A stretch of 64,000 nt of DNA from an uncultured Clostridia bacterium (GTDB lineage Bacteria > Bacillota > Clostridia > Christensenellales > CAG-917). Numbering within the stretch: the first letter of the stretch is position 1; each line of letters begins with the position of its first letter. The notes beneath the pieces are model-generated. The model saw nothing but the letters and a program-made list of their open reading frames with translations. It made no database searches and was not told the DNA's origin. The stretch lies in the NCBI GenBank assembly GCA_944363035.1, contig CALVTS010000004.1, positions 601 through 64,600 on the forward strand, written 5' to 3'. Positions 1,498 to 55,045 of the stretch are shown one piece after another. The position numbers and the translations under genes were made by a program.

Positions 1498-3195
1498 ATG
1501 TTTGAAAAAGAGATAGCGAAAAGCATAGCCGCGGCAAGCGGCGGCGCGCTCGCCGAGGCTGAGGTCGAAGCGGCGCTGGAAACTCCCAAGGAGAGCAGGC
1601 TCGGAGACCTCGCTCTGCCTTGTTTCAAATTCGCAAAAACTTTGCGCAAAGCGCCTCCGCTCATCGCGAAGGAGCTGGCGGAGTCCCTCCTCCCACCCGA
1701 CATCGTGGGACGCACCGAGGTCGCGGGAGGATATCTCAACTTCTTCTTTTCGGCCGATGCGCTCTGCGGCAGGCTCGCGTCCGCGGCGGACAGGGACTGG
1801 ACGGTGACCGCGGGAGAGCGGGAGGGAGAGGGCAAGACGGTGCTTTTGGATTTCAGCTCCGTCAACATCGCGAAACCCTTCCACATCGGGCACCTTTCCA
1901 CCACGGTGATAGGCGCGGCTCTTTACCGCATTTTCGCATTTCTCGGCTACACTCCCGTGGGGATAAACCACCTCGGGGACTGGGGGACGCAGTTCGGCAA
2001 GCTCATCGTGGCGGTGAAGAAGTGGTCGGACATCGACGAGGTGAGGGCGAAGGACGAATATTTCCTGAACTCCCTCTATGTGCGTTACCACAAAGAGGCG
2101 GAGTCCGACCCATCCATGGACGAGGAAGCGAGGGCGTGGTTCAAGCGCATCGAGGACGGCGACAGGGAAGCCACGGCGTATTTCGACGTCTTCAAAGAGG
2201 TCACCATGCGCGCGGTGGGGAAGATATACGACCGCCTCGGAGTCAAGTTCGACAGCTACGCGGGCGAGAGCTTCTACAACGACAAGATGCAACCCTGCCT
2301 GGACATCCTGAAAGAGAAGGGATTGCTCACCCTCTCCGAGGGCGCGGAGGTGGTCAGGCTGGACGAGTGGGATATGCCTCCCTGCCTTCTCGTGAAGGCG
2401 GACGGCGCGACTCTTTACGCGACGCGCGACATCGCGGCGGCGTATTACCGTGCAAAGACATACGATTTCTACAAATGCCTTTATGTCGTGGCGTATCAGC
2501 AGAATCTGCACTTCAAGCAACTGTTTAAGGTGCTTGAACTGATGGGTTTTGAAAAAGCGGCGGATATGGAACACGTCGCGTTCGGCATGGTGTCGTTGGA
2601 GGACGGCTCCATGAGCACCCGCAGCGGGAGGGTGGTATGGCTCTCCGAGGTACTGGACAAGGCGGTGGAAAAGGCGAGGAAGATCATCGAGGAAAAGAAT
2701 CCCGAGGAGGCGGACAAGGACGCCGTGGCGGAGAGCGTGGGCGTGGGCGCTGTGGTCTTTTCGGCGCTGTGGAACAACCGCATCAAGGACATAGTTTTCT
2801 CCTTTGACAAGGTGCTCAATTTCGACGGAGAGACCGCGCCCTACGTGCAGTACACTCACGCGAGGTGCGCCAGCGCGCTGAGGAAAGGGGGAGACTTCGA
2901 CCTCGCGGCGGCGGATATGAGAGCGATCTCCTCCGAGGAGGGGCTGGACGTGGTGAAGTGCCTTTTGGGGTTCGAGGACGCGGTGAGGCTCGCGGCGAAG
3001 ACCCGCGAACCCTGCTATGTGACCCGTTACGCCGTGGAACTTGCCGAAAAGTTCAACCGATTCTATATCGGGCACAGGATAATCGGCGAGGACAGGGGCG
3101 CGACCAACGCCAGGCTCTTCCTCGCGTATATGACCAAGAGTACTCTCGCCGCCGCGCTCGGGCTCATCGGCATTTCCGCTCCCGAGAGTATGTGA
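1498..3195 (+). CDS. argS: Arginine--tRNA ligase
   Basis: Frame of ORF 1273..3195. ATG at 1498 gives MFEKEIAK. Class I HIGH region KPFHIGHLST, with the ArgRS-type layout and a C-terminal anticodon-binding domain. Confidence 0.9.
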   Translation: MFEKEIAKSIAAASGGALAEAEVEAALETPKESRLGDLALPCFKFAKTLRKAPPLIAKELAESLLPPDIVGRTEVAGGYLNFFFSADALCGRLASAADRDWTVTAGEREGEGKTVLLDFSSVNIAKPFHIGHLSTTVIGAALYRIFAFLGYTPVGINHLGDWGTQFGKLIVAVKKWSDIDEVRAKDEYFLNSLYVRYHKEAESDPSMDEEARAWFKRIEDGDREATAYFDVFKEVTMRAVGKIYDRLGVKFDSYAGESFYNDKMQPCLDILKEKGLLTLSEGAEVVRLDEWDMPPCLLVKADGATLYATRDIAAAYYRAKTYDFYKCLYVVAYQQNLHFKQLFKVLELMGFEKAADMEHVAFGMVSLEDGSMSTRSGRVVWLSEVLDKAVEKARKIIEEKNPEEADKDAVAESVGVGAVVFSALWNNRIKDIVFSFDKVLNFDGETAPYVQYTHARCASALRKGGDFDLAAADMRAISSEEGLDVVKCLLGFEDAVRLAAKTREPCYVTRYAVELAEKFNRFYIGHRIIGEDRGATNARLFLAYMTKSTLAAALGLIGISAPESM

Positions 3196-3232
3196 GGGGA
3201 GCCGCGTGAGAGGGCAAACAGAGCTCAAACAG

Positions 3233-3261
3233 TTGACATAAGTTTCTCTTTTATATATAAT
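3233..3261 (+). promoter_or_regulatory. Consensus sigma-A-type promoter for the rpmH operon
   Basis: TTGACA (3233-3238), 17-nt spacer, TATAAT (3256-3261), ~118 nt upstream of rpmH. Confidence 0.7.
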
Positions 3262-4095: not shown

Positions 4096-5276
4096 ATTAC
4101 AGACGCCGCAAGATGTTCAGAATATACGCAGTGGCATTGTTGCTGATACTGAGCGTTTTCATCCTTTCGGCGTGCAATGCGGACAGCGGCTCCTTCGACG
4201 CGTCGGGGGGCTCGGTGTCGCAACCTTCCCATTTCATTGCCAAGCTCATGCTGGGACTTGACGAGGACATAGCCGTATTCGGCTGGTCCGTCGTCGCGTT
4301 CACCGTCATCCTGAAGCTGGTGCTGTCCCCCCTCGACATCTGGCAGAAGGTGGTCTCCCGCCGCAACGCCAAGGCGATGGAGAGGATGCGCCCCCAGCTC
4401 GAGGCGCTTGCCGAGAAGTGCGGCGACGACAAACAGCGCTATCAGCAGGAGCAGATGGCTCTTTACAAGAAAGAGAAGTACTCCATGCTCGGGATGTGCC
4501 TGCCCTCCATCATCACGCTGGTGGTGTTCTTCGTGGTGTTCACGGGATTCCGCGAGATGGTGGGCTATCAGTTCGCGCAGGACTACGTGGACAGCTATAC
4601 CACCTTTGACAATGTGATGACCGAGGAGCTCGGCGAGGACTACGAGTCCATGGACAAGACGGGCGAGAATGCGGAAAAATACAACGCCGCCGTGGACAAA
4701 GCTCAGACCGCGGTCTATGAAAGATATTTCTCGGAGGAGCGCACCGACAGGCGCGGGTTCCTCTGGATACACAACATCTTCGTGTCCGACAACTGGCAGG
4801 ACGGCGTGCCCGATTATCTCGTCGCCACGGGACAGGAGGGCTTCGGTATGTCCAAGATCACCGGCGTCATGAAGGACGAATACGAGCTGGTCATGGGCAA
4901 GGTCATTGGCGCCGACAGAGCGGGCTGGGGCAAGGGCGACGCGAGCTGGAACGGCTGGATGTTGCTTCCCGCGCTGTCCATCGCGCTCACATTCGTCTCT
5001 CAGAAGCTGCTTTCCAAGTCTCAGGGAGCGCCTCCTCCCACCGCCGACGGCAAGAAGGGTGCGGACGGTATGCAGGGCTCCATGAAGATGATGCAATATT
5101 TCATGCCGATAATGATAGGCGTGTTCTCTCTGTTCTATTCCGCCGCATTCGCGTTGTACACTTTCACCAGCTCTCTGGTGTCCATAGTCTTCCAGTTCGC
5201 GTTCACTGTCGTGGGCAAGATACTGGACAAGCGCGCGGAGAAGAAGACGGGAGGTCTCACGCCCGCAAGAAGATAA
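4083..5276 (+). CDS. yidC: Membrane protein insertase YidC/SpoIIIJ family (lipoprotein-type signal, LSAC lipobox)
   Basis: Position after yidD. N-terminal signal with lipobox, multi-TM 60-kDa-insertase-like C-terminal half. True start may be the MFRIYAV methionine at 4113. Confidence 0.85.
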   Translation: MARVDYRRRKMFRIYAVALLLILSVFILSACNADSGSFDASGGSVSQPSHFIAKLMLGLDEDIAVFGWSVVAFTVILKLVLSPLDIWQKVVSRRNAKAMERMRPQLEALAEKCGDDKQRYQQEQMALYKKEKYSMLGMCLPSIITLVVFFVVFTGFREMVGYQFAQDYVDSYTTFDNVMTEELGEDYESMDKTGENAEKYNAAVDKAQTAVYERYFSEERTDRRGFLWIHNIFVSDNWQDGVPDYLVATGQEGFGMSKITGVMKDEYELVMGKVIGADRAGWGKGDASWNGWMLLPALSIALTFVSQKLLSKSQGAPPPTADGKKGADGMQGSMKMMQYFMPIMIGVFSLFYSAAFALYTFTSSLVSIVFQFAFTVVGKILDKRAEKKTGGLTPARR

Positions 5277-6160: not shown

Positions 6161-7477
6161 ATGCGTGCGATAACAGCCATTTCGACGCCCGTAGGGGCGG
6201 GTGGTATCGGGATACTGCGCGTGTCCGGCGAGGACGCGCTGAAAGTGTCCGATACCATTTTCATTTGCAAGGACGGAGAGCCTCTTTCAAAGAGGGCTCT
6301 CGTCATGCGTTTCGGGACGTTTGACGCAGGAGATTTCCGCGACAAGGGTTACGCGGTCTATTTCCCCGCCGCCAAGGCGTATACGGGGGAGGACACCGTG
6401 GAGTTTTATCTCCACGGCGGAGTGCGCATAATGCAGGGGGCGCTGGACGCCGCTTTGCGCGCGGGCGCGCGCCTTGCCGAAAGAGGGGAGTTCACCAAAA
6501 GAGCGTATCTCGCGGGCAGGCTCTCTCTCGCGGACGCCGAAGGCGTGGCGGACATGATATCCGCCGAAAGCGCCGCCGCTCTCCGCGCCGCATATAGGCT
6601 TATGGAGGGCAGGCTGAGCCGAGAGATAGACGCCCTCACCGATGAGCTGGGCGGCATCCTCACGGGGCTGGAAGCCTCTTTGGATTATCCCGACGAGATG
6701 GAGGACGAAGTCCTGCCTCCGCTCGCCGAGGAGCTCGGACGGGCGCTCTCGCGGGTGGACGCCCTGCTCGCCACGGCAAAGACGGGCAGGATGGCGAAAT
6801 ACGGCGTCACCGCCGTCCTCGCGGGCAGACCCAATGCGGGCAAGAGCTCTTTGATGAACGCTCTGCTCGGGGAGGAGCGCGCCATCGTCACGGACATCGC
6901 GGGCACCACCAGGGATACGCTGGAAGGCAGTTTCGAGTGCGACGGCGTGAGGATAAACCTCGTGGATACCGCAGGCATAAGAGAGAGCGAGGACAGGATA
7001 GAGAGCGAGGGAGTGCGGCGTGCGCTCCGCGCCGCAGAAGGCGCCGACGTGGTGTTGTATGTGGTGGACACCACCGCGCCCTGCGAGGAGGAGATACCCT
7101 CCTTCGGGGAGGCGCGGGTCTTCACGGTGCGCAACAAGTGCGACGTCACCTCCTTCAAATGTCCGCGGATGTACGGGTGCTTCGCCGTGAGCGCCTTGGA
7201 CGGCAGAGGGGTGGAAGAATTGCGCCACGCGATCGCCGCGCTCTATGCAGAGGGCAAGACCGCAGACGGAGAGATCATCACATCCGAAAGGCACAAAGGC
7301 GCACTTTATCGTGCGAAACGCGCGCTTGAAAGCGCGATATCGTCACTTGGCGGAACGGTAGACCTCACTCTCGTGGACCTCAGGGAAGCGTATGACGCCC
7401 TTGGGGAGATAACGGGGAAGACCGCCACCGAGGACGTGGTGGACGCCATATTTGCGAAGTTCTGCGTGGGCAAATGA
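6161..7477 (+). CDS. mnmE: tRNA modification GTPase MnmE
   Basis: ATG at 6161 within ORF 5786..7477 gives MRAITAISTPVGAGGIGILRVSG. G1 GRPNAGKSSLMNAL. C-terminal FCVGK. Confidence 0.93.
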   Translation: MRAITAISTPVGAGGIGILRVSGEDALKVSDTIFICKDGEPLSKRALVMRFGTFDAGDFRDKGYAVYFPAAKAYTGEDTVEFYLHGGVRIMQGALDAALRAGARLAERGEFTKRAYLAGRLSLADAEGVADMISAESAAALRAAYRLMEGRLSREIDALTDELGGILTGLEASLDYPDEMEDEVLPPLAEELGRALSRVDALLATAKTGRMAKYGVTAVLAGRPNAGKSSLMNALLGEERAIVTDIAGTTRDTLEGSFECDGVRINLVDTAGIRESEDRIESEGVRRALRAAEGADVVLYVVDTTAPCEEEIPSFGEARVFTVRNKCDVTSFKCPRMYGCFAVSALDGRGVEELRHAIAALYAEGKTADGEIITSERHKGALYRAKRALESAISSLGGTVDLTLVDLREAYDALGEITGKTATEDVVDAIFAKFCVGK

Positions 7478-7551: not shown

Positions 7552-9411
7552 ATGCAACGTGAAAAGTACGAGATCATAGTGGTGGGCGGCGGGCACGCCG
7601 GCGTGGAAGCCGCGCTCGCCTGCGCGAGGAAAGGACACGACACTCTCATGTTGTGCCTCGGGCTCGGCACCGTCTCTATGATGGCGTGCAATCCCGCGAT
7701 CGGGGGCACCGCAAAGGGACACCTCGTGCGGGAGATAGACGCGTTGGGCGGAGAGATGGCGCTTGCCGCCGACAAGGCGCTGGTGCAGATAAAGATGCTC
7801 AATTCCGCAAAAGGCCCCGCAGTTTTCTCCCTGCGCGGGCAGGAGGACAAGGCGGTCTATCAGAGGGTGATAGCCGACGCTCTGAGACGCACTCCTCGGC
7901 TCACGGTGCGAGTGGGCGAGGGCGTGGAGGTGCTCCTTTCGGGGGGCGCGGTGTGCGGAGTGAAACTTGCCGACGGGGAGGAGATATTCTCGGACAGCGT
8001 CATCCTTGCCACCGGGGTGTATCTCAACGGCAAGGTGATAATAGGGGAGTATTCCAAAAGCTCCGGTCCCTCCGGGCACCCCCCCGCGATCGGGCTCACG
8101 GACAGCCTTCTGAGGCTCGGGCTCCCCGTGAGGAGGTTCAAGACGGGCACGCCCGCGCGCATATACCGTGACTCCATAGACTTTGACGAGATGGAGATAC
8201 AGCTCGGCGAAAATACGGACAGGTTCTCCTTTATGTCCGAGGTCGGGAGCTTTCCGGAAGAGCCCTGCTGGCTCACTTACACCAACGAGCGCACGCACGC
8301 GATCATCATGGAGAACATCTCCCGTTCCCCTCTCTACAACGGGAGCATAAGCGGCATAGGTCCCCGCTACTGCCCCTCCATAGAGGACAAGATCATGCGG
8401 TTCAGGGACAAGGAGAGGCATCAGATATTCGTCGAACCCGAAGGGCTCGGGAGCGACGAGATGTACATCCAGGGCATGAGCAGTTCTCTGCCGCATGACG
8501 TGCAGGAGGCGATGTACCGCACCATCCCCGGGCTCACGCGGTGCAGATTCGCGAAATACGCCTACGCGATAGAGTACGACTGCGTTGACCCCACCTCCCT
8601 TTACCCCACGCTGGAAAGCAAACTCCTCCCCGGGCTGTACCTTGCGGGCCAGCTCAACGGGAGCAGCGGCTACGAGGAGGCGGCGGCGCAGGGGCTCATG
8701 GCGGGGCTCAACGCCTCTTTGCGGCTGGAAGGACGGGAAAAAATGGTGCTTGCCCGCGACGAGGCGTACATCGGCGTCCTCATCGACGACCTCGTCACCA
8801 AGGGTACGAACGAACCCTACCGCATGATGACCGCGAGGGCGGAACACCGCATAAAACTCCGTCAGGACAATGCGGATATGCGCCTCACCGCAAAGGGCTA
8901 TGCGGCGGGTCTCGCCACGGAGGAGAGGATGCGCCGCACAGAGGAAAAACGGGAGATGATAGAGCGCGTCATGACTTTTTCTTCCCGCGTGCTGCCGCGC
9001 GCCGAGGCGGAAGCCGTGCTCAAAAAGAGAGGAGAACCCGTGCCGCAGAAACCTCTCACCTTCGGAGAGCTCGCAAGACGGCCCGCCGTCACGGCGGAGG
9101 ACGTCGCGGGATTTCTGCCCTTCGAGTGTTCTCGCGAGGCGTTGTCCGCCGCAGTCGTGGAGCTCAAATACGAGGGCTATCTCAAAAAACAGGAACAGGC
9201 GGTCAAAGAACAGCGCCGCCTCGAAGAGAAGCTCCTGCCTCCCGACATCGACTATTTCTCGATCTCCGCGCTGAGGCTGGAAGCCAGGCAAAAGCTGGAC
9301 AGGATACGTCCCCTCAACCTCGGGCAGGCGAGCAGGATATCGGGGGTCTCGCCCGCAGACATCGCCGTGCTCATCGTCCTGCTCTCTCGGGGAACGGAGC
9401 GCGGCGAATAG
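7552..9411 (+). CDS. mnmG: tRNA uridine 5-carboxymethylaminomethyl modification enzyme MnmG (GidA)
   Basis: 619 aa. FAD motif IVVGGGHAGVEAA. Full-length GidA-like. Follows mnmE. Confidence 0.95.
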   Translation: MQREKYEIIVVGGGHAGVEAALACARKGHDTLMLCLGLGTVSMMACNPAIGGTAKGHLVREIDALGGEMALAADKALVQIKMLNSAKGPAVFSLRGQEDKAVYQRVIADALRRTPRLTVRVGEGVEVLLSGGAVCGVKLADGEEIFSDSVILATGVYLNGKVIIGEYSKSSGPSGHPPAIGLTDSLLRLGLPVRRFKTGTPARIYRDSIDFDEMEIQLGENTDRFSFMSEVGSFPEEPCWLTYTNERTHAIIMENISRSPLYNGSISGIGPRYCPSIEDKIMRFRDKERHQIFVEPEGLGSDEMYIQGMSSSLPHDVQEAMYRTIPGLTRCRFAKYAYAIEYDCVDPTSLYPTLESKLLPGLYLAGQLNGSSGYEEAAAQGLMAGLNASLRLEGREKMVLARDEAYIGVLIDDLVTKGTNEPYRMMTARAEHRIKLRQDNADMRLTAKGYAAGLATEERMRRTEEKREMIERVMTFSSRVLPRAEAEAVLKKRGEPVPQKPLTFGELARRPAVTAEDVAGFLPFECSREALSAAVVELKYEGYLKKQEQAVKEQRRLEEKLLPPDIDYFSISALRLEARQKLDRIRPLNLGQASRISGVSPADIAVLIVLLSRGTERGE

Positions 9412-9445
9412 GGGGTTCTCCGACACGCGTTGCGGAGCGAGCCTT

Positions 9446-9526
9446 ACCGTATAGGAAAGGCGAATGACACGGTTCGGGCAGGATTCTCTTGCGTCGGATC
9501 GGATTTGTATTATTCCGCTTCGGCAT
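9446..9526 (+). repeat. Partial (right-end) copy of the 281-bp element at 36722-37002
   Basis: Ungapped hand alignment to 36922-37002 gives 59/81 identical positions, including ACCGTAT, AAGGCG, ATGAC, CGGTTC and GTATTATTCC...GGCAT. Sits between the mnmG stop and the spoIIR stop. Confidence 0.6.
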
Positions 9527-10103: not shown

Positions 10104-10189
10104 GATGACCTCGCGGGGAGTATTGCCTTTGAGGCGTTACGGTATACATAAAAATCTCACCGCCGCCGAAACTAGGCGCGGAGGTGACT

Positions 10190-11128
10190 ATGCAAAGCGC
10201 AAAAAAAGGGAAACTTCTGTTTTGCGGGATCGCGCTCGCGCTTGCCCTCCTGATGTGCGCCGTCTGCCTGTTTGCGGCGGCTGAGGATACCGCAAGCGCG
10301 GCAAATCTCGGGCAGGGTAGCACTGGGGACAAGGTGAGCGAGATGCAACGCAAGCTCAAAAACTGGGGATATTACGACGGCTCGGTGGACGGCATATTCG
10401 GTTCGGGCACGAGAAAGGCGGTGGAGTATTTCCAGCGCACCAACGGACTCACACCCGACGGCGTGGTGGGACGCGCGACTGCGGCGGCTCTCGGCATGAC
10501 CCTTTCCGGGAGTTCCTCGGGAGGGAACGAGTCGTCTTCCGGAGTCCTGCGCAGGGGTAGCTCGGGAGACAGGGTGAGCGAGATGCAACGCAAACTCAAA
10601 AACTGGGGATATTACGAGGGCTCGGTGGACGGCGTGTTCGGTCAGGGCACCGAGAGCGCGATCAAGTATTTCCAGCGCACCAACGGGCTCACGCCGGACG
10701 GCGTGGTGGGACGCGCGACTGCGGCGGCTCTCGGCATGACTCTTTCGGGGAGTTCCTCGGGCGGCGGCGAAAGCGTGTCCTCCTCCGATCTCGAACTGCT
10801 CGCGCGCGTGGTGTACGGCGAGGCGAGAGGGGAGGAATATATCGGTCAGGTAGCGGTCGCCGCCGTGGTGCTCAACCGCGTGGCGAGCCCGAGTTTCCCG
10901 GGCACCATCGCGGGGGTGGTGTATCAGGCGGGCGCATTCGACTGCGTGGCGGACGGGCAGATAAACCTCTCTCCCGACGACACCGCGAGGAGGGCGGCGC
11001 AGGACGCGCTGAACGGCTGGGATCCGACCTACGGCTGTCTGTTTTATTACAATCCGCGCACGGCGACTTCGGCGTGGATGCTGTCAAGACCCGTCAAACT
11101 TGTCATCGGACAACACAATTTCTGCTAG
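10190..11128 (+). CDS. sleB: Spore cortex-lytic enzyme SleB (two PG_binding_1 domains plus SleB/CwlJ hydrolase domain)
   Basis: ATG at 10190, 5 nt after GGAGG (track start 10184 is GTG). Duplicated GSSGDxVSEMQRKLKNWGYY...GLTPDGVVG modules. C-terminal LLARVVYGEARGEEYIGQVAVAAVVLNRV. Confidence 0.9.
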   Translation: MQSAKKGKLLFCGIALALALLMCAVCLFAAAEDTASAANLGQGSTGDKVSEMQRKLKNWGYYDGSVDGIFGSGTRKAVEYFQRTNGLTPDGVVGRATAAALGMTLSGSSSGGNESSSGVLRRGSSGDRVSEMQRKLKNWGYYEGSVDGVFGQGTESAIKYFQRTNGLTPDGVVGRATAAALGMTLSGSSSGGGESVSSSDLELLARVVYGEARGEEYIGQVAVAAVVLNRVASPSFPGTIAGVVYQAGAFDCVADGQINLSPDDTARRAAQDALNGWDPTYGCLFYYNPRTATSAWMLSRPVKLVIGQHNFC

Positions 11129-36611: not shown

Positions 36612-36661
36612 CGCTCCTGCCGGCATCCTCCCTCTCCCGCGACATCGCGGGGAGGGGAAAC

Positions 36662-36695
36662 TCGCGGCGCGGGTCTCCCGCGCCGCGTTCCTTTT
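36662..36695 (+). terminator. Intrinsic terminator
   Basis: CGCGGCGCGGG-tct-CCCGCGCCGCG followed by TTCCTTTT. Confidence 0.75.
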
Positions 36696-36721
36696 GCGCC
36701 TTTGAAAAGGGGAGGGGCAGG

Positions 36722-37002
36722 CATGCCAGACAGGAATAATACGAACCAGCCTCGGAGCAATTCTTTTCGGCGCTTTTGCACAGCCGAAACTTGCCAATAT
36801 GTACACTATTGCCTGCGTTCCGCCCGTGCAACATCATCCGAAAATCTCTTGCTCTGAGGTGCTAGCAGTTCCGCGCCAACCGATTTTTGGCTGAGCAAGG
36901 AAGTTGCCGCCGCTAATACCCCACCGTATTGGCAAGGCGGATGACGCGGTTCAGGCGGAAATCGGCGGCGCTGAACCTGATTCGTATTATTCCTGTCTGG
37001 CA
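36722..37002 (+). repeat. 281-bp element with perfect 23-bp terminal inverted repeats (MITE-like or long closing stem of a structured RNA)
   Basis: ATGCCAGACAGGAATAATACGAA (36722-36744) is the exact reverse complement of 36980-37002. No ORF. Several internal helices. Partial copy at 9446-9526. Confidence 0.6.
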
Positions 37003-37057
37003 TATCACGCAGACGCGGCGCATATCCTGATAAGAATCACAAACAAGGAGGCGGAAT

Positions 37058-38074
37058 GTGAGGCTAAGGATCTTGTTTTCGGAAAGCGAGCGCTCCTCGG
37101 TGCGCATTTTGGGCAGGAGCGCGGAGGAATATCTTTCAAGGGAGTTTGCAGATTTCCCCTGCGAGAGAGGGAGGGCGGAAGAGCTCCCTCCCCCCGAGGA
37201 AGGGGAGACTCTCGCCGTCATCCCCCTCGATATGCCCCTCGTCACCGTCGAGGACGTGCGGGAGGGGATTGCGCGCGTCAGGAAGTACGGGCTGAAGGAG
37301 CTCATGCTGGGAGGTGCGGAAAGCGGCGCGAAACTCATAGTCGGCGGGGAGGGCAGGACGGGCTACACCCTCGACTCGCCGCACTTTGTCAAAGTTGATA
37401 GTGCAAAAAATCGCGCGTTGGTGTATAATCAAATGAAAGAACGCGTGATAACGCGGTTGCTCGAGGCGGGCGTCTTTCTGCCCGATCCCTCTCTCGTCGC
37501 GGTGGACGACACCGTGACGGTGTCCGCAGGGGCGGAGCTTTTGCCATTTTGCAGGCTGGAAGGAGACACTACCGTCGCAGAGGGGGCTCGCATCGAGGGG
37601 GCGTATCTGAAAGATTGCGTCATCGGGCGGGACGCACGCGTCCTCATGTCCCATTTGACGGGCACGCGCGTGGGCGCACGCTCGGAAGTGGGACCTTTCG
37701 CGCGCCTGAGAGACGCCGTCATCGGGGAGGACTGCCGCATAGGCGACTTTGTGGAGGTCAAAAATTCCTCGGTGGGGGAGGGCGCGAAGAGCGCGCATCT
37801 TGCCTATATCGGGGACGCGGACGTGGGGGCGAAGGTCAACGTCGGGTGCGGGACGGTGTTTTGCAACTACGACGGGAAAAACAAGCACCGCACCGCCGTC
37901 GGCGACCGCTGTTTCATTGGCGCGAACGTCAATCTGGTCGCCCCGTTGAGGCTGGGTGAGGGCTCTTTCGTCGCGGCGGGCACCACGGTCACGGAGGACG
38001 TGCCGTCGGACGCGTTCGTCATCGGCAGGAGCCGTCAGACGGTGAAGACGGACTCAAAACGCAAAAACACTTAG
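37058..38074 (+). CDS. GlmU-like protein: intact left-handed beta-helix acetyltransferase domain, short degenerate N-terminal nucleotidyltransferase domain
   Basis: GTG at 37058, 6 nt after AAGGAGG. C-terminal hexapeptide repeats and NYDGKNKHRTAVGDRCFIGANVNLVAP typical of GlmU. N-terminal region is ~115 aa and lacks the LxxGxGTxM signature. Synteny glmU-(prs)-pth-mfd. Confidence 0.7.
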   Translation: MRLRILFSESERSSVRILGRSAEEYLSREFADFPCERGRAEELPPPEEGETLAVIPLDMPLVTVEDVREGIARVRKYGLKELMLGGAESGAKLIVGGEGRTGYTLDSPHFVKVDSAKNRALVYNQMKERVITRLLEAGVFLPDPSLVAVDDTVTVSAGAELLPFCRLEGDTTVAEGARIEGAYLKDCVIGRDARVLMSHLTGTRVGARSEVGPFARLRDAVIGEDCRIGDFVEVKNSSVGEGAKSAHLAYIGDADVGAKVNVGCGTVFCNYDGKNKHRTAVGDRCFIGANVNLVAPLRLGEGSFVAAGTTVTEDVPSDAFVIGRSRQTVKTDSKRKNT

Positions 38075-54790: not shown

Positions 54791-54819
54791 TTGCAACACA
54801 TGGTCGGATATGATACAAT
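54791..54819 (+). promoter_or_regulatory. Sigma-A-type promoter driving the cobalamin riboswitch
   Basis: TTGCAA (54791-54796), 17 nt, TACAAT (54814-54819). Confidence 0.65.
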
Positions 54820-54825
54820 CCACTT

Positions 54826-55045
54826 GCCTCGGGTGCGGCGAAAGCCGATAAACGGGAAGTCGGGTGAAGATCCCGCACAGCCCCCGCTACTGTAAGGTGA
54901 AACGGAGCACGCCATTCCTGTATGCAGGGAGAAGGCGCCGCGGCGCGAGCCGACCGAAGTCAGGAGACCGGCCCGAGAGCGTCAAGCAGTTGTTTCGGTG
55001 GGAGACGACGGCGTGTTTCGCCTTGCCTTCCGCAGAAAACGGGAG
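54826..55045 (+). promoter_or_regulatory. Cobalamin (B12) riboswitch
   Basis: Core GGGAAGTCGGGTGAAGATCCCGCACAGCCCCCGCTACTGTAA and B12 box GAAGTCAGGAGACCGGCC. CCTCGGG...CCCGAG closing pair. Expression platform runs into the GGGAGG RBS. Confidence 0.85.

Follow-up and report, generated by a model that had tools for sequence, protein, structure and literature searches.

A Probable MITE-Like Transposable Element from an Undescribed Non-Coding Repeat Family of Uncultured Gut Clostridia

The 281-bp element at positions 36723-37003 of the window (the whole 64-kb stretch of DNA that was analysed) is most probably a copy of a non-autonomous, non-coding MITE-like transposable element that has spread through a clade of uncultured gut Clostridia; we put the probability of this reading at about 0.78. 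The element belongs to a repeat family with conserved ends that is dispersed between genes, is present or absent at orthologous sites, carries AT at its junctions and is inverted in some strains. The family is undescribed and new for this poorly known group of uncultured bacteria, but it would be a mobile element of a common kind rather than a regulatory RNA. It breaks short-read assemblies at many loci and marks recent rearrangements, namely inversion, truncation and exchange of flanks between strains. It could be a strain-typing marker and a bait for its transposase.

Position and Architecture of the Element

The preliminary description of this DNA had located the element at 36722-37002; its length of 281 bp and its repeats were right, but every position was one base too low (Table 1). 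The plus strand is arbitrary and follows the orientation of the family profile. The perfect 23-bp terminal inverted repeats (TIRs) were recovered as described, with ATGCCAGACAGGAATAATACGAA at 36723-36745 and its exact reverse complement at 36981-37003, and had matches in 0 of 100 shuffles. They extend to 27 bp with one mismatch, and a repeat search gives 36 nt at 86%. As in MITEs, TIRs bound the element, and they are kept in all full copies. These terminal repeats of 23-27 bp, which would be the ends bound by a transposase, enclose two long imperfect palindromes (arms 1 and 2). The interior helices seen earlier hold as well, CCTCGGAGCAA (36750-36760) pairing with TTGCTCTGAGG (36849-36859) with one G-U. 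The tip of arm 1 is a hot spot of truncation and insertion around element positions 103-111, near which breaks or insertions occur in L016b/L034, L035, L051, the L057-type alleles and L024 (L numbers designate loci). In arm 2, the alignment of copies shows a tip hairpin (36912-36919 with 36926-36933) with a hypervariable loop and a constant stem.

The element has the size of a MITE, for which the limit is about 500 bp, and the lack of coding capacity (281 bp here, 244-517 bp across copies). That it contains no open reading frame had been noted before and stands: its short ORFs have no frame conservation, and the copies vary by indels of 1 nt and 37 nt. A coding reading was considered, as both ends open with ATG and read MPDRNNT in either direction; it was rejected because indels between copies destroy the frame.

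Table 1. Coordinates of the element, its parts, its neighbours and its homologues (window positions unless a locus is named).
Feature	Position	Strand	Basis
Full copy of the repeat family	36723..37003	+	nhmmer E 2.7e-103; full-length homologues 76-92% identity
Left TIR	36723..36749	+	23 bp perfect (36723-36745), 27 bp with 1 mismatch
Right TIR	36977..37003	+	23 bp perfect (36981-37003)
Terminal AT, putative 2-bp target duplication, left copy	36723..36724	.	invariant in full copies
Terminal AT, putative 2-bp target duplication, right copy	37002..37003	.	as for the left AT
Arm 1, imperfect ~112-bp palindrome	36749..36860	.	basal helix 36749-36760 with 36849-36860
Arm 2, imperfect ~109-bp palindrome	36868..36976	.	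basal helix 36868-36896 with 36949-36976
Intrinsic terminator of the upstream small membrane-protein gene (context)	36663..36697	+	11 G-C pairs and T-run
Leader of the glmU-like/pth/mfd operon	37004..37057	+	TGATAAGAAT box 37028-37037 (probable promoter), AAGGAGG ribosome-binding site 37045-37051
Degenerate 85-nt 3'-end remnant	9442..9526	+	profile positions 197-281, 74.6% over 71 nt
Full-length homologues	L016, L046, L049, L042, L055, L032, L053, L033, L009, L024		76-92% identity

The terminator described upstream of the element is present, with its stem at 36663-36687 and a T-run ending at 36697, although the distance to the element is 25 nt and not 26. Likewise, the GTG of the glmU-like gene lies at 37058, 54 nt past the element end rather than 55. 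The 54-nt leader between them is identical across strains regardless of the orientation of the element. We place the promoter of the operon in this leader because the TGATAAGAAT box aligns with a TGGCATAAT box in the sister species; the box probably marks a promoter downstream of the insertion. The window copy would thus have landed in a safe slot, past a terminator and some 25 nt ahead of what is probably the core promoter, and need have no effect on either flanking gene. The known control of the glmU-like/pth/mfd operon is unchanged by our finding.

The glmU-like protein (37058-38074, plus strand; 338 aa) matched only hexapeptide repeats in Pfam, with no nucleotidyltransferase match. Its N-terminal domain had been called degenerate; more than 6,500 homologues share the architecture of about 340 aa, which is therefore not damage caused by the insertion. 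Homologues of similar length adjoin pth and mfd; the protein thus belongs to a short family of its own, and the gene is no damaged glmU.

State of the Locus in Other Strains

Other strains of the same species, whose flanks differ by about 0.7%, show three states at the right junction, where GGCAT is followed by ATCACGCAG. The element is forward in the window lineage and in L061; its body is inverted in L059 and probably in L004; and it is inverted and truncated to element positions 1-111 in L057, L058, L060 and L062. The truncated alleles have also lost 25 nt of the left flank, and their junction has 6-bp microhomology. Within the window lineage, whose contigs are 0-1 differences apart over 3 kb, the element is forward in 7/7 readable contigs, and orientation is kept in four other orthologous pairs across assemblies; at the level of contigs, inversion would therefore be rare rather than a fast phase variation. 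After the insertion, the inverted repeats may have destabilised the locus, so that in other strains the body was flipped, or flipped and cut by a microhomology deletion.

The interior of the element is about 5% different between strains (9 of 190 positions in L059 1-192, and ~7 of 111 in L057 3836-3946), while the flanks differ by only about 0.7%. This excess points to conversion by other copies or to mutation driven by hairpins.

A Dispersed Repeat Family

Short patterns matched 17 genome stretches and 30 metagenome stretches, and by profile search the true copies amounted to 5 Clostridia MAG loci and about 24 metagenome loci. The MAG loci were found with a degenerate right-end pattern, and the metagenome loci with a 21-nt pattern taken from the part of the interior that is conserved best. 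Among the MAG carriers is Candidatus Caccalectryoclostridium excrementigallinarum, classed in Christensenellaceae. At least 12 loci were present in the gut assembly OZGX01 (12-16x coverage) and 7 in UMHM01, while the MAG BRZ_ET bin92 held 3 pieces of the element. Multiple copies per genome with unrelated flanks are the dispersal expected of a MITE. Eleven full-length copies of 244-517 bp were 76-92% identical to the window copy; all of them run from ATGCC to GGCAT, with unrelated sequence on either side. Every copy lies between genes; the neighbouring genes are on the same and the opposite strand about equally often, and some copies lie between convergent genes. Many contigs with the downstream gene stop 27-54 nt into the element, as is usual in assembly at multi-copy repeats.

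The second, partial copy in the window, previously given as 9446-9526, was confirmed and extends over 9442-9526 (nhmmer E 3e-12). This remnant sits between mnmG and spoIIR in a 128-nt spacer that is identical in 10 contigs, covering all strains seen; a contrast of filled and empty sites was sought here, and the strains were all identical.

Several copies are variants of the common plan. Some contain a 43-45-nt hairpin unit (...CGGGGTCCCCGAGTGAAAATCTATGATTTTCAGTTGGGG...) in arm 2, always at one fixed point after GAGCAA: it occurs twice in tandem in L024 (about 4140-4230) and also in L033 (about 2040-2085), L031 (about 9400-9445) and L039 (about 3140-3190), and was not found outside copies of the element. 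The L039 copy (2925-3234) has lost its right terminal repeat, and the inner part of its arm 2 is inverted between the 12-bp inverted repeat at the base of that arm, CAGTTCCGCGCC / GGCGCGGAACTG, a further sign of recombination or conversion among copies. L046 (1-366) and L049 (5276-5856) have right flanks that are 98% identical and left flanks that are unrelated, and such one-sided sharing indicates a rearrangement at the element. A further solo sequence that resembles the ends lies about 190 nt off in the left flank of L049. Solo TIR-like sequences of 20-25 nt were also seen in L011, from a lower-GC Clostridia MAG, at 1101-1123, 1203-1222 and 6419-6443; one of them is exact over 25 nt, and no element body or mobility gene lies between them.

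An ORF in L042 (1753-3201, plus strand) that resembles a phage terminase large subunit, as judged by eye from the translation only, begins 39 nt from a copy; some copies therefore lie at or within prophage regions. In the viral scans, one 21-nt match and 27 matches to the loose end pattern fell into ~7 unrelated sequence groups with no element body, and we judged these matches to be chance. L078 (1530-1549) and 13 related contigs, a family of gut viral contigs of about 20 kb each, carry GTATTATTCCGGGACGGCAT, which on the other strand reads ATG CCG TCC CGG AAT AAT (MPSRNNT) and so resembles the terminal MPDRNNT. The profile search found no element in them, and this resemblance is probably chance too.

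Empty Sites and Target of Insertion

An empty tadA-glmU region was found in the sister species, the closest other species found (glmU-like protein 65% identical). It shares the gene order MBL hydrolase, CPBP protease, rlmH, tadA, small membrane protein, glmU-like, pth, mfd, and its spacer at the window locus is 199 nt long with no trace of the element. In a further pair L055 is filled and the orthologous L027 is empty, with flanks 92-94% identical. Both cases are insertion polymorphism of the kind seen with MITEs. A MITE had been one of two readings offered in the preliminary description, and it is supported by the many unrelated intergenic sites, the presence/absence polymorphism, the assembly breaks and the AT-bounded insert.

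The empty site of L027 reads ...TGTCCGGC-AT-GCGGTCG, and the filled site of L055 reads ...GGTCCTGC-AT-[GCCAG...CTGGC]-AT-GCGGTCG. L027 has one AT where L055 has AT on both sides; a single AT would therefore have become two. Flanking target-site duplications had been named at the outset as something to look for: AT flanks every copy, and the sole empty site, itself an old end remnant, has one AT. A 2-bp target duplication is thus probable from these junctions, while the AT at both ends could be part of the repeat, and a deletion between direct repeats would explain the empty site of L027 equally well.

In L055, what lies immediately left of the AT is a degenerate 3' (right-end) remnant. Similarly, L009 carries a tandem of a 95-nt right-end fragment and a full copy with one AT in common, and in L031 the copy directly adjoins a TIR fragment of 13 nt. 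Judged from these junctions, new copies would clearly tend to insert right beside the ends of older ones. The first flank base after the AT is a purine in 32/44 distinct ends, compared with 52% in the background, and GC stands next to the AT in 9/44, which suggests a weakly palindromic target Y-AT-R. To our knowledge AT, unlike TA, is not a target of any characterised family.

Fold, Pairing and Alternative Readings

The second reading offered at the outset was a structured RNA, either a ~280-nt non-coding RNA gene or a cis leader of the glmU-like operon, with the 23 bp as its closing stem. The extreme stability of the fold speaks for it, with z about -10: the whole element reaches -137 kcal/mol (z -10.3) on the plus strand and -143 kcal/mol (z -9.9) on the minus strand, in a predicted Y shape of a closing stem and two long arms. 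Pairing is also well kept. Across copies 98% of the cells stay paired; 5 pairs changed on both sides, a number equalled by 8/500 shuffles, and the 10 cells with double-sided changes were reached by 0/500. In helix 1, which joins the left end with the right end, the alignment gives 25 pairs, 96% of cells paired and 3 pairs changed on both sides. On the plus strand, arm 2 and the basal part of arm 1 keep several G-U pairs, and the tip loop of arm 2 varies over its constant stem. However, palindromic DNA under selection on its ends, or templated repair, would give the same pairing signal, and we regard a structured RNA as extremely improbable. Strand asymmetry, the property that would tell the two apart, gives no support to an RNA. 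Arm 1 alone folds better on the minus strand (z -6.4, against -4.9 on plus) and arm 2 on the plus strand (z -6.0, against -2.7 on minus); the two arms favour opposite strands and are therefore DNA palindromes rather than one RNA. Among 11 copies folded singly, the more stable strand was plus in 7 and minus in 4, and singleton mismatches are A-C about as often as G-U. Rfam covariance models run against 36723-37003 gave nothing at the gathering threshold or at E<=10, and a promoter or terminator of its own was not found in the element. Furthermore, copies keep neither a set position nor a set orientation relative to genes, viable strains of this species carry the element inverted or half-deleted at this same locus, and the sister species lives without it. 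A very stable intergenic fold is not always a regulatory RNA.

The asymmetry of G-U and A-C was tried as an RNA test: alifold hinted at a plus-strand bias, but folds per arm and per copy showed no consistent strand. A cis-regulatory leader was rejected on the ground of the mixed gene contexts and orientations of the copies. The weak sub-threshold Rfam matches fall on the upstream terminator only. In this region the tandem terminator hairpins (36620-36694, plus strand) resemble the Burkholderia sRNA ncS54 with 26.7 bits against a gathering threshold of 43 (E 5.5e-4), which we judged to be generic similarity of GC hairpins.

Invertible promoters such as E. coli fimS, the Bacteroides fragilis polysaccharide promoters and the flagellar and cwpV switches of Clostridioides difficile are 150-350 bp long, are flanked by 9-30-bp inverted repeats, lie upstream of an operon and occur in both orientations. 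A 281-bp segment with 23-27-bp inverted repeats, 54 nt upstream of an operon, is of typical size for such an inverton, in which a site-specific invertase would flip it and switch glmU-like/pth/mfd and, at other copies, other neighbouring genes. Both orientations occur at an identical right junction among strains of one species, and the repeats are common genome-wide, as they are with the invertible promoters of B. fragilis. Nevertheless, this is very unlikely, as the lineage-stable orientation and the mobile, context-free copies are not those of a switch. All 7/7 contigs of the window lineage have one orientation, changes appear only between lineages about 0.7% apart, and the four other orthologous pairs are orientation-stable. 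A consensus scan of both strands found 0 sigma-70-like sites inside the element, and none in the operon leader either; a hand-found TTGCAC-17-TAGTAT on the minus strand matches 7/12 consensus positions. No invertase or other recombinase was found among the window ORFs tested or beside the copies examined, copies between convergent genes have nothing to drive, and insertion polymorphism, tandem copies and remnants are not switch-like. A different mobile class is also unlikely, if less so: a small circle that a serine or tyrosine recombinase integrates, or a single-stranded hairpin moved by an HUH enzyme. A serine recombinase leaves a 2-bp core at both junctions, and crossover could occur at the central AT of a palindromic end-to-end junction (...CTGGC-AT-GCCAG...); joined ends would make a perfect 44-bp palindrome centred on AT. 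Diverse target flanks are unlike an attachment site. HUH-driven movement like that of REPIN/RAYT or IS200/IS605 would agree with a whole element of nested palindromes that stay complementary, and the solo end-like 20-25-mers do occur as singlets. REPINs and REPs with their RAYT are intergenic, hairpin-forming doublets of inverted short repeats that decay into singlets; each REP unit is a short palindrome that has a conserved GTAG-type head and leaves no duplication. In contrast, the 23-nt end of our element is not self-complementary and thus not REP-like, its conserved body is 230 bp long, AT stands on both sides as a putative duplication, and the one-sided conserved flanking tetranucleotide needed by IS200/IS605 is missing. 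Neither beside the copies examined nor among the window ORFs tested was a recombinase or HUH gene found.

Mobilisation and Comparison with Known Systems

As a MITE-like element, the copy would be moved in trans by a transposase encoded elsewhere, and insertion at an AT dinucleotide would leave AT on both sides as a 2-bp duplication. Copy-out-paste-in DDE transposases of the IS30 type would fit its behaviour best, a likening made because of the 2-bp duplication and the targeting of its own inverted repeats. IS30 makes a 2-bp target duplication and prefers palindromic hot spots or its own inverted repeats; it forms abutted IR-IR junctions 2 bp apart, and it gives rise to inversions and deletions (PMC9333248). 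Gut Clostridia frequently carry IS30 transposases (PMC12823448). On the side of the element, the AT-AT junctions, the copies abutting old ends in L009, L055 and L031, and the inverted or deleted state of the window locus elsewhere are similar, and the three junctions are compatible with a 2-3-bp duplication and own-inverted-repeat targeting in the style of IS30. The resemblance is behavioural only; no IS30-type transposase or full-length element with these ends was found.

The search for a mobilising enzyme gave no candidate. Pfam on 30 window ORFs, together with the pre-annotated ORFs of the matching contig, revealed no transposase or recombinase in the 64-kb window, and none was found beside the copies examined (ORFs near truncated copies and the L011 region). 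Pairs of element ends 1-3 kb apart were absent from every locus, and blastn against plasmid and phage collections gave no match. The autonomous partner that a MITE would have was thus not found in the window, in the 100+ loci or among short exact-pattern matches in genome, metagenome and viral collections, an absence that short exact patterns make weak evidence.

In kind, the closest systems are bacterial MITEs such as the Correia elements (NEMIS/CREE) of Neisseria and RUP of Streptococcus pneumoniae. These are 100-155 bp long, with TIRs of ~26 bp and a 2-bp target duplication at a TA target; Correia elements encode no transposase, and none is known for them. Like these systems, the present family is small and non-coding, has TIRs and long hairpins, and occurs in many intergenic copies, which in Correia and RUP are often near gene starts. 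It differs in its AT instead of TA, in its length of 281 bp (about twice theirs), in its gut Clostridia host and in a body of two separate palindromes, three-way and not a single hairpin; there is no sequence similarity.

One observation counts against a merely decaying MITE: the interior is unusually conserved and palindromic across species, which decay would not require. The nested three-way palindrome might be the working part, a folded DNA hairpin or cruciform moved or flipped by a non-classical enzyme at the AT in the centre of the joined ends, although we find this very unlikely. If it were true, the flips of the whole element and of a single arm between strains would be products of the hairpin reaction, and the copy upstream of glmU-like/pth/mfd could be a slow heritable switch.

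Other Features of the Window

A cobalamin riboswitch (Rfam RF00174, 93.9 bits) was detected at 54814-54990 on the plus strand; the ORFs downstream of it had no Pfam match. A SleB-like spore cortex hydrolase (10184-11128, plus strand) adjoins spoIIR. Its alleles are 312, 232 and 210 aa long across strains (L068-L077), and they differ in the number of PG_binding_1 repeats.
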